The notes under the pieces are model-generated. The model had not been told where the DNA came from, searched no databases, and was given only the letters and a program-made list of their open reading frames with translations. From Escherichia coli (GTDB lineage: Bacteria; Pseudomonadota; Gammaproteobacteria; Enterobacterales; Enterobacteriaceae): DNA of 64,000 nt. Location of the stretch: NCBI RefSeq assembly GCF_003334405.1, contig NZ_QOWM01000008.1. One strand, 5' to 3'. Of this stretch, positions 59,552 through 60,487 are shown piece by piece. The translations under genes and the position numbers were made by a program. The first letter of the stretch is position 1. Every line of letters begins with the position of its first letter.

Positions 59552-60487
59552 ACGTCAGGAAAGCAGGGGAGAATGCTGCTAGTTGGGCAACTGGTCTTTC
59601 TGCTCCAAATTATAACAGAGACCAGTTATAGTTTCGGTGCTGTGTTTTTTTACAATATTGTGATAACACATTGCTGGCGGGAGTTTTGATATTTCTTGGC
59701 AGGGGCTGATGATGCGTTATCCTGATGTCGTCAACTCATATAAAATGAGATGAGAGATCATTGCAGGGTGGTTTGTAATTCGCTGTTTAGCGGGACAATA
59801 TGTTGTCTGATACAAGACACCCGACGCCTCAGATTACTATAATAAAGACGAAGCATCCTTTGTATTGACCAACCGCCTGTTTAGGCGGTTCTTTTTGGGC
59901 TGGTTTATTGTATGCCAAATGATTATTAAAAAGGTTGTGTTAATAACAAAATCCGAAATAATATGCCTGCATATTTTTATCTTGCTTATATTCTGCATAT
60001 TGTGCATAGCAGGCTCATCCCTGCAATCAAAACTGTATGATGAGTATTTTTTGTTTTCCTTTTTTCCAGTCATCTGATGATGACCTGCTTCTTTTTAATC
60101 CGGATCGACATCAGTTTTTTAAGATAATTCCTGCGAGTTATATGCATAAATGCCACAAACTCCGCATTTTATGTGGTTGGGAGTTGCCGGGCGCGCAGTG
60201 AGTTTGCTAAGAAAACTCCTGCATGGTGAATCCCCCTGTGCGGTGGGGTGATACCATTAACCTTTTCTGTCGCCGACAGGTATCACGAACATTTTGTTCA
60301 CCGGGAGGCACCCGGCACCATGTACTTCAATAGATTCTCTCCACATTATGGATATTCTTTCAGAATATCCCACGCAGACTTTGTGTAAATGTTAACAAAT
60401 GTGCGTTTTATTTGATCTGATTCGCTGTTTGAGCGTCCAAAACAACGGTATATATAATCCTTTACTATATGACATATGTGAGGAAAA

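Follow-up and report, generated by a model that had tools for sequence, protein, structure and literature searches.

The question raised by this locus is what is held in the stretch of about 0.9 kb (59552-60487) that separates the terminator following a Q-like antiterminator gene from the first of two lipoprotein genes, in a window of 64,000 nucleotides of Escherichia coli DNA (RefSeq assembly GCF_003334405.1, contig NZ_QOWM01000008.1; all coordinates are those of this window). A first-pass annotation, made from the sequence alone, had described this stretch as a gap at the position where lambdoid phages carry tRNAs or toxin morons. Between 58.0 and 62.9 kb, the window contains a lambdoid prophage's late-regulatory and lysis region, arranged as follows.

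58016-58615: NinB/Orf-like gene of the DUF1367 type
58615-58905: DUF1364 gene
58902-59444, plus strand: Q-like antiterminator gene, 180 aa (Pfam DUF1133, PHROG 753)
59444 to 60488: non-coding interval of 1,043 bp, between the Q-like gene, whose stop codon ends at 59444, and the first lipoprotein gene, whose ATG begins at 60488
60488-60916 and 61067-61462, plus strand: genes for lipoproteins with a TolA C-terminal domain (PHROG 5772, E-values of 1e-62 and 1e-65)
Downstream of the lipoprotein pair: holin, SAR-type lysozyme and Rz/Rz1 genes

The lipoprotein pair matches the TolA C-terminal region in NCBIfam as well. Since trkG is found downstream of identical DNA in E. coli HKUOPY1, and since McaS, FnrS, RalA and sok were also detected in the window by a whole-window Rfam scan, the prophage is read as a fuller version of Rac. 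More than 400 complete E. coli genomes contain an identical copy of the interval, and about 1,200 contain parts of it. No RNA or regulatory feature is annotated in it by RefSeq, whose sole entry there is a minus-strand "hypothetical protein" lying over the RNA core described below and probably spurious. The locus is an ordinary one, and the RNA family that it turns out to contain, the position of this family and its association with Hfq have already been published.

The first element to be considered is the terminator at the upstream border of the gap. The Q-like protein matches Pfam DUF1133 with an E-value of 3e-106 and PHROG 753, 'anti-termination protein Q-like', with an E-value of 3e-78, together with a weak match to Phage_antitermQ (E-value of 1e-4) and a weak similarity of its N-terminus to the Q21 structure 6P18 (E-value of 0.24). 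In phage lambda, the pR'-qut-tR' unit, source of the 6S RNA, and in Stx phages the pR' giving the short transcript StxS, have their promoter directly after Q. A comparable arrangement stands directly after the Q-like gene of the window.

59441-59480, plus strand: candidate late promoter pR' (sequence elements and conservation after Q homologues)
59525-59551, plus strand: intrinsic terminator, probably tR' (hairpin with an A-tract and a T-tract)

More precisely, a -35 element TTGATT (59441-59446) overlaps the stop codon of the Q-like gene and is followed, with a 17-nt spacer, by an extended -10 element TGcTTCAAT at 59461-59469, whose counterpart in Rac-SA53 reads TATCTT; a -10-like repeat, TATGCT, then lies at 59475-59480, 5 nt past the extended -10. 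The terminator, aaaaaaaccgc-ttaat-gcggttttttt, forms a hairpin of -16.9 kcal/mol, and the segment 59476-59555 folds with a z-score of -4.4. This post-Q block is kept in five other contexts, in which the Q-like gene or its flanking DNA is 42-94% identical to the window (the Q homologues show 94%, 75%, 60% and 42% protein identity, and Ec214-4 about 83% DNA identity). The motif TTGAYT is found in five of the six aligned contexts, the aligned stretch of the sixth, KpF5, beginning downstream of it, and the TAnGnT repeat in all six, with Q homologues of 42-96% identity, at a spacing of about 45-60 nt from the terminator; a terminator occupies the equivalent position in the five other contexts with stem sequences that differ from phage to phage. 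A post-Q promoter, a -10-like element and a terminator are in this way kept together with the Q type at the level of sequence. The candidate pR' at 59441-59480 was not listed by the consensus promoter scan, and its assignment is one that we infer from these elements and their conservation.

As in the lambda and StxS units, a -10-like element is located just past the -10, a strong intrinsic terminator follows within about 75 nt, and the moron site and lysis genes come after the whole unit. Unlike in these systems, the Q protein is here of the DUF1133 type, a distant relative of Q21, and we know of no experimental start site, pause or Q-binding element for a Q of this type. Because a Q-dependent late promoter that has a tR' and a sigma-dependent proximal pause element would be expected to show this layout, what the first-pass annotation had called the Q terminator, although indeed a strong hairpin with A- and T-tracts, is better labelled as tR': a terminator read through by Q-modified polymerase is more likely here than one merely ending the Q transcript. 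In such a scheme, a compact late promoter overlapping the end of the Q-like gene would, without Q, give a short RNA of about 75 nt ending at tR', and with Q, polymerase would read on past 59525-59551, so that pR'-tR' would gate the late operon of this Rac-type prophage. In Salmonella Gifsy-1, too, a short RNA is encoded directly downstream of a Q-like gene, antQ; this RNA, IsrK, has a promoter of its own and a terminator that is leaky (PMC4825925). The Rfam isrK model (RF01394) gives a weak full-length alignment at 59478-59551, with 21.6 bits against a gathering score of 50, and no match at the equivalent positions of five related loci. In view of this subthreshold score and of the lack of match in the relatives, homology of the post-Q RNA to IsrK was rejected, and the likeness between the two is one of position only.

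Downstream of tR', the interval indeed occupies a moron and tRNA site, as had been supposed, since relatives with the same DUF1133-type Q carry there either tRNA-Thr and tRNA-Gly, about 350 nt after Q, or, in Rac-SA53, the pertussis-like toxin genes eplBA. The earlier statement that the gap contains no tRNA-like structure also holds: ARAGORN finds no tRNA or tmRNA anywhere in the window, and Rfam no tRNA, either in the whole window at gathering thresholds or in 57000-64000 at E <= 1. The counterpart of the tRNA/toxin site, 59553-59810, is unrelated filler. A tRNA remnant was considered as well and discarded, given these negative searches and the fact that alignment with the relatives bearing tRNA-Thr/Gly leaves no residual similarity after tR'. 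What follows tR' would then be about 650 nt of lineage-specific, non-coding filler, within which one small promoter-plus-terminator unit stands out.

59814-59897, plus strand: promoter-like site and terminator, candidate short RNA unit of about 47 nt

The promoter-like site of this unit reads AAGACA-18-TATAAT (59814-59843), and its terminator is the second hairpin, aaccgcc-tgttta-ggcggtt, which had been noted at about 59870-59896 and proves real, the hairpin itself spanning 59871-59890 and the following CTTTTT extending to 59896. Two other contexts contain the unit, again as a discrete block; in one of them, NRZ103545, homology to it stops directly after the T-run, with the stem kept and a different loop. 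It has no match in Rfam. Short prophage RNAs are known at the same moron site, in the form of the anti-sRNAs AgvB and AsxR (PMC4104026). Like them, the unit would give a short (about 47 nt) terminator-ended RNA downstream of pR'; unlike them, it lies on the late strand rather than convergent to it, and upstream rather than downstream of the STnc100 copy described below. The AgvB and AsxR models (RF02702, RF02703) have no match on either strand of 57000-64000 at E <= 1.

Overlapping this second hairpin is one of the small hydrophobic ORFs whose reality had already been doubted.

59865-60077, plus strand: spurious hydrophobic ORF of 70 aa with a TTG start, in the AT-rich spacer

Such ORFs do exist, and a gene for a small hydrophobic protein, encoded by this or another small ORF, would be suggested by the mere presence of 70 codons with hydrophobic stretches and by the NCBI records that list the ORF as a 'hypothetical protein'. 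Yet the TTG start falls inside the terminator hairpin and is not preceded by a Shine-Dalgarno sequence, and no match to the ORF is found in Pfam, PHROG or NCBIfam. Among 5.8 billion proteins searched, its homologues amount to only four near-identical E. coli clusters of varying length, and in its sole diverged copy, that of SK6988, the frame is shifted and truncated to 58 aa, the first part, conserved as DNA, being kept. More broadly, five small ORFs of the gap were compared with PHROGs and NCBIfam, one of them also with Pfam, one with the 5.8 billion proteins and one by tblastn with phages, and nothing credible was returned by these profile, protein or tblastn searches, the 78-aa ORF of the minus strand having no tblastn match in phages. 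The ORF at 59865-60077, lacking any family and frameshifted in SK6988, is not a gene, and it is very improbable that the gap encodes a small hydrophobic protein at all.

The last third of the interval gives a different picture. Rfam scans of 57000-64000, and then of the whole window, in which the match was reproduced, identify there a copy of a known structured RNA.

60191-60377, plus strand: STnc100-family RNA (Rfam RF02076), full-length model match
60221-60323, plus strand: five-helix junction core of the STnc100 copy (MFE of -41.9 kcal/mol, z = -3.0)
60221-60228 paired with 60316-60323: core helix P1
60232-60248: core helix P2
60249-60285: core helix P3
60287-60299: core helix P4
60301-60315: core helix P5

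The match covers model positions 1-206 with 83.4 bits, against a gathering score of 47, and an E-value of 2.8e-17; this score belongs to the lower part of the family range (68-172 bits). The core measures 97 nt from TGGTG to CACCA, or 103 nt with a three-pair extension of P1, and is the second-shortest of a family ranging from 96 to 130 nt. It shares with STnc100 (EcOnc27/sRNA103 in E. coli O157; PasD1/PasD2 of EPEC are kin) the common five-helix core with the invariant TGGTGAAT ... CACCGGGAGGCACCCGGCACCA, including the UGGUG/CACCA closure and the CCGGG-AGGCA-CCCGG hairpin, and it stands where the family stands in lambdoid prophages, between Q and the lysis cassette and on the same strand as the late operon. 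The first-pass annotation had itself named a structured RNA gene as a finding that would change its interpretation, and this full-length match is such a gene: what had been said of hairpins, tRNA absence and doubtful ORFs stands, and the implied lack of a structured RNA gene does not. The view of an essentially empty spacer, holding only a second hairpin and a lipoprotein promoter, does account for the absence of tRNAs and real ORFs and for the promoter-like site at 60429-60458 described below; against a match well above the Rfam threshold and a structure supported by covariation, it retains hardly any likelihood. The content of the gap is a copy of STnc100 together with ordinary start, stop and promoter signals of a late operon.

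STnc100-type RNAs of related prophages are independent transcripts of about 190-240 nt that are stabilized by Hfq and pair with many mRNAs. Related cores were gathered in two independent scans of viral contigs for exact patterns, with the anchor on the 3' half of the core in one scan and on the 5' half in the other; together they yielded 92-126 distinct STnc100 cores. Their elements come in a fixed order: P1 (UGGUG/CACCA), AAU, P2, the variable P3 and P4, and P5 (CCGGG-AGGCA-CCCGG), directly adjoining the 3' strand of P1. Some 45 core nucleotides, loops included, are almost invariant, and in the search anchored on the 5' half the 20-nt 3' half is exact in 184 of 205 copies. In P1 and P5, the exceptions are G-U wobbles or one double change from C-G to U-A, and a P2 variant replaces CCCCC/GGGG by CCUUUC/GAAAGG. 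The three-pair extension of P1 covaries: it is paired in 94, 82 and 70% of the distinct copies, compared to about 45% for the next three positions, and is made up of A-U (56), G-C (53) and G-U (10) at the first pair, of C-G (52), U-A (38) and U-G (12) at the second, and of G-C (63), U-A (17) and G-U (8) at the third. Of 92 cores, 81 form P4 beside P5, and they do so with 49 different sequences. The substitutions within the family are wobble or compensatory, which shows that selection acts at the level of the RNA as well as of the DNA, and these comparisons provide evidence that the STnc100 fold is under selection. A kissing interaction between the P2 and P5 loops was considered and rejected, its candidate partner varying (U or A) without compensation.

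In the surveyed copies, STnc100 is always on the late-operon strand and, at loci with tRNAs, on the strand of these tRNAs; copies are single or in tandem, with five in L169, four in L003 and three in L046. A good TTGACn-17-TAAnnT promoter precedes P1 in many of them, its -10 ending 5-10 nt before this helix. Of 160 distinct copies, at least 89 carry a clear GC-rich terminator past the core, which as a rule begins some 25-50 nt beyond it; this count is a lower bound, as both simple terminator detectors miss TTTCTT tails and long loops, and many of the other copies do have a terminator that the strict rule passed over. The terminator is often followed by that of a convergent minus-strand gene. 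The published members agree with this anatomy: EcOnc27 lies 3' of stx2B, at the moron site downstream of pR', and is convergent with the anti-sRNA AsxR (PMC4104026); EDL933 has 11 Rfam STnc100 copies, one of which was confirmed by Northern blot (PMC5331693); one copy is located 75 nt downstream of stx2 (PMC12370729; PMC12711010); and in EPEC, PasD1 and PasD2, which lie next to Q and depend on Hfq, are described as structural homologues of STnc100 (PMC8550237; bioRxiv 10.64898/2026.05.13.724894). Expression in association with Hfq is that of copies other than the one in the window (PMC4104026, PMC8550237, PMC5331693).

Compared to this family anatomy, the copy in the window deviates in what surrounds its core. 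At the usual place of the canonical terminator, within 60349-60413, it has two hairpins of another kind.

60351-60369, plus strand: AU-rich hairpin without U-tract (-5.4 kcal/mol), followed by CCACGCAG
60372-60413, plus strand: weak interrupted hairpin (-8.7 kcal/mol), followed by UUUAUUU
60429-60458, plus strand: sigma-70-like promoter candidate, TTGAGC-18-TATAAT (10 of 12 consensus matches)

The canonical terminator after the core is absent from the window copy and from the whole TolA-linked class to which it belongs; this GC-rich intrinsic terminator is at the same time the presumed Hfq-binding module. There is no clear promoter next to P1 either: the consensus scan gives no promoter-like site just upstream of the core, where the sole candidate, TGcTAAGAA at 60205-60213, is poor. 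In addition, the core is fused to the TolA-like lipoprotein module, and the convergent anti-sRNA partner is missing, as neither an Rfam match nor a minus-strand terminator indicates a convergent minus-strand anti-sRNA downstream of STnc100 in the window.

The third of these features answers to the promoter of the lipoprotein pair that had been presumed to lie in the gap. The site 60429-60458 is located 30 nt upstream of the lipoprotein ATG, which is preceded by the Shine-Dalgarno sequence GAGGA at 60480-60484, and is identical in phage mEp460 and an O128 prophage. Promoter-like sites in the scan as a whole number 9, against 4.7 +/- 2.3 in shuffled sequence, an excess of about 2 standard deviations that makes any single site weak evidence. 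The site is hence a plausible candidate for the lipoprotein promoter, and would let the TolA-like pair be expressed from the prophage.

The arrangement of the window is shared with other phages. Phage mEp460 and other prophages carry, in this order, Q, tRNAs, STnc100, TolA-like genes, holin and lysozyme, with the RNAs all on the late strand. Between P5 and the lipoprotein ATG (60322-60487), mEp460 and the O128:H27 prophage are virtually identical to the window, and SK6988 shows about 95% identity to it. The window and mEp460 differ in the flank upstream and in the internal helices P3 and P4. An identical 3' flank next to a differing upstream flank and differing P3/P4 places recombination joints inside the invariant core. 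In the same line, 196 distinct copies fall into 64 upstream, 42 internal and 50 downstream sequence classes, which occur in 97 combinations. The TolA-linked 3' module is found in several hundred E. coli genomes at an identity of at least 99%, and the terminator-less arrangement is therefore a stable one and not a one-off decay. The window copy is a member of this widespread terminator-less STnc100 subclass fused to a TolA-like lipoprotein module.

These observations bear on whether the copy is still functional. It could be a decaying, unexpressed relic, the halves of its core serving only as homology patches for recombination between lambdoid phages. The joints inside the invariant core with one flank identical to that of mEp460, the wide reassortment of flanks (64 x 42 x 50 classes in 97 combinations), the missing terminator and the unclear promoter are all in keeping with such a relic, as is the published view that a PasA-3 variant lacking a terminator may be a pseudogene (bioRxiv 10.64898/2026.05.13.724894). 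Nevertheless, the five helices are all intact and the fold is stable, the wobble and compensatory substitutions are those of a sequence selected as RNA, and the class without a terminator is a common one that occurs in a viable phage, so that a relic appears rather unlikely.

Alternatively, the core could act in cis, as a structured leader of the lipoprotein or late transcript rather than as a free trans-acting sRNA, for example by protecting the mRNA, guiding its processing, or binding a protein or RNA polymerase. The lack of a canonical terminator after the core in the TolA-linked class points in this direction, as do the recurrence of the same junction, about 100% identical, in no fewer than four contexts (the viable phage mEp460 among them) and, with an identity of at least 99%, in several hundred E. 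coli genomes, the unvarying late-operon strand of the element, and the near invariance of some 45 core nucleotides with their loops, which suggests recognition by a partner over simple base pairing. On the other hand, most copies of the family look like independent sRNA genes, with their own promoter 5-10 nt before P1, their own terminator and tandem arrays, and discrete Hfq-dependent RNAs were observed on Northern blots (PMC8550237, PMC5331693). Riboswitch-like coupling between core and terminator was rejected, terminator sequences varying independently of the P1/P2 variants, without sign of an alternative pairing, and some classes having no terminator; the HK022 put antiterminator RNA was rejected too, putL and putR sharing no alignable core with STnc100 and differing from it in genomic position. 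A role in cis is accordingly given about the same low probability as a relic. The independent-gene anatomy of most members favours a free sRNA for the family, whereas the missing terminator and promoter favour a cis leader or a relic for the window copy.

A more specific proposal, held to be less probable still, is that the STnc100 junction, beyond forming the body of a base-pairing sRNA, is a domain dedicated to binding a partner, be it a protein, RNA polymerase, the ribosome or a small ligand, and acts in cis in the terminator-less copies. It would explain why about 45 nt stay identical, loops included, amid shuffled surroundings, and why one to five copies stand ahead of moron and lysis genes in many lambdoid prophages; if true, stability, processing or read-through of the late and moron transcripts would be affected.

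Taken together, the data make it probable, with good though not full confidence, that the interval is a Q-dependent late-operon leader, composed of a pR'-tR' unit, filler, a copy of an STnc100-family sRNA and a lipoprotein promoter. Within this leader, the copy of the STnc100/EcOnc27/PasD family, with its conserved five-helix core on the late-operon strand, has the usual GC-rich terminator of the family replaced and has no clear promoter of its own, and we therefore infer that it would either be contained in a longer transcript heading for the lipoprotein genes or end at the weak hairpin and U-run of 60372-60413. Any regulatory action of the copy would then depend on processing.

With regard to the organism and the family, once the STnc100 copy, the pR'-tR' unit and the promoter of the moron are named, the late-operon leader of Rac-type prophages can be read correctly, and the STnc100 family gains a documented subclass that is terminator-less and joined to a TolA-like lipoprotein module. 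The invariant halves of the STnc100 core coincide with the joints of mosaic recombination, and a role in cis for this conserved core becomes an idea that can be tested.

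The window carries three sRNA genes that score above their Rfam thresholds:

39048-39143, minus strand: McaS sRNA gene
42521-42638, plus strand: FnrS sRNA gene
46948-47126, plus strand: RalA sRNA gene

Taken together, these genes identify the window as the E. coli chromosomal region bearing the Rac prophage. Rac retains here Q and the lysis genes, which E. coli K-12 has lost. Upstream of Q, the window also carries a toxin-antitoxin locus:

57227-57552, plus strand: complete hok/sok-type locus, with an Rfam sok match and a Hok-like ORF

The sok match (105 bits, 57227-57402, plus strand) overlaps the start of the Hok-like ORF, which encodes 51 aa (57397-57552, plus strand).

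The interval following Q carries different cargo in related elements. In phage Rac-SA53, the pertussis-like toxin genes eplBA (L241 4492-5723) occupy the interval that seems empty in the window; further phages that share this DUF1133-type Q (L126, L127, and L244) carry tRNA-Thr and tRNA-Gly about 350 nt after it. Within the gap itself, one discrete block combines a promoter-like site and a terminator:

59814-59897, plus strand: candidate short RNA unit

This block, found again in two further prophage contexts (L003 ~3010-3095 and L244 2501-2583), in one of which the homology stops directly after the T-run, could encode an sRNA of about 47 nt, for which no Rfam family was found.

Further downstream lies the STnc100 sRNA, whose invariant core halves contain the joints of phage-module mosaics (window 60221-60323; loci L002-L004). 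At these joints, the 3' flank is identical, whereas the sequence 5' of the core and its internal helices differ; among 196 distinct STnc100 copies, 97 flank/internal combinations were counted. In some prophages, STnc100 forms tandem arrays of 3-5 copies spaced by about 260 nt, all on the same strand as the adjacent tRNA genes:

L169 4984-7937: tandem array
L003 1317-4793: tandem array
L046 1321-1954: tandem array

In many genomes, RefSeq places a partial protein gene opposite the conserved core, as in the comparison locus L002:

L002 2910-3050 (window ~60207-60373), minus strand: partial 'hypothetical protein', RefSeq annotation

The gene call is probably spurious, an effect of the conserved RNA sequence.

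Beyond STnc100, two paralogous lipoproteins are encoded, each with a lipobox signal peptide and a TolA C-terminal domain (PHROG 5772):

60488-60916, plus strand: first lipoprotein
61067-61462, plus strand: second lipoprotein

In identical DNA (L001 5212-5472), PGAP records the first gene as a pseudogene, a truncated tolA, although its ORF of 142 codons is intact. An obvious idea is that the pair may act as a decoy for TolA-dependent colicins or phages.
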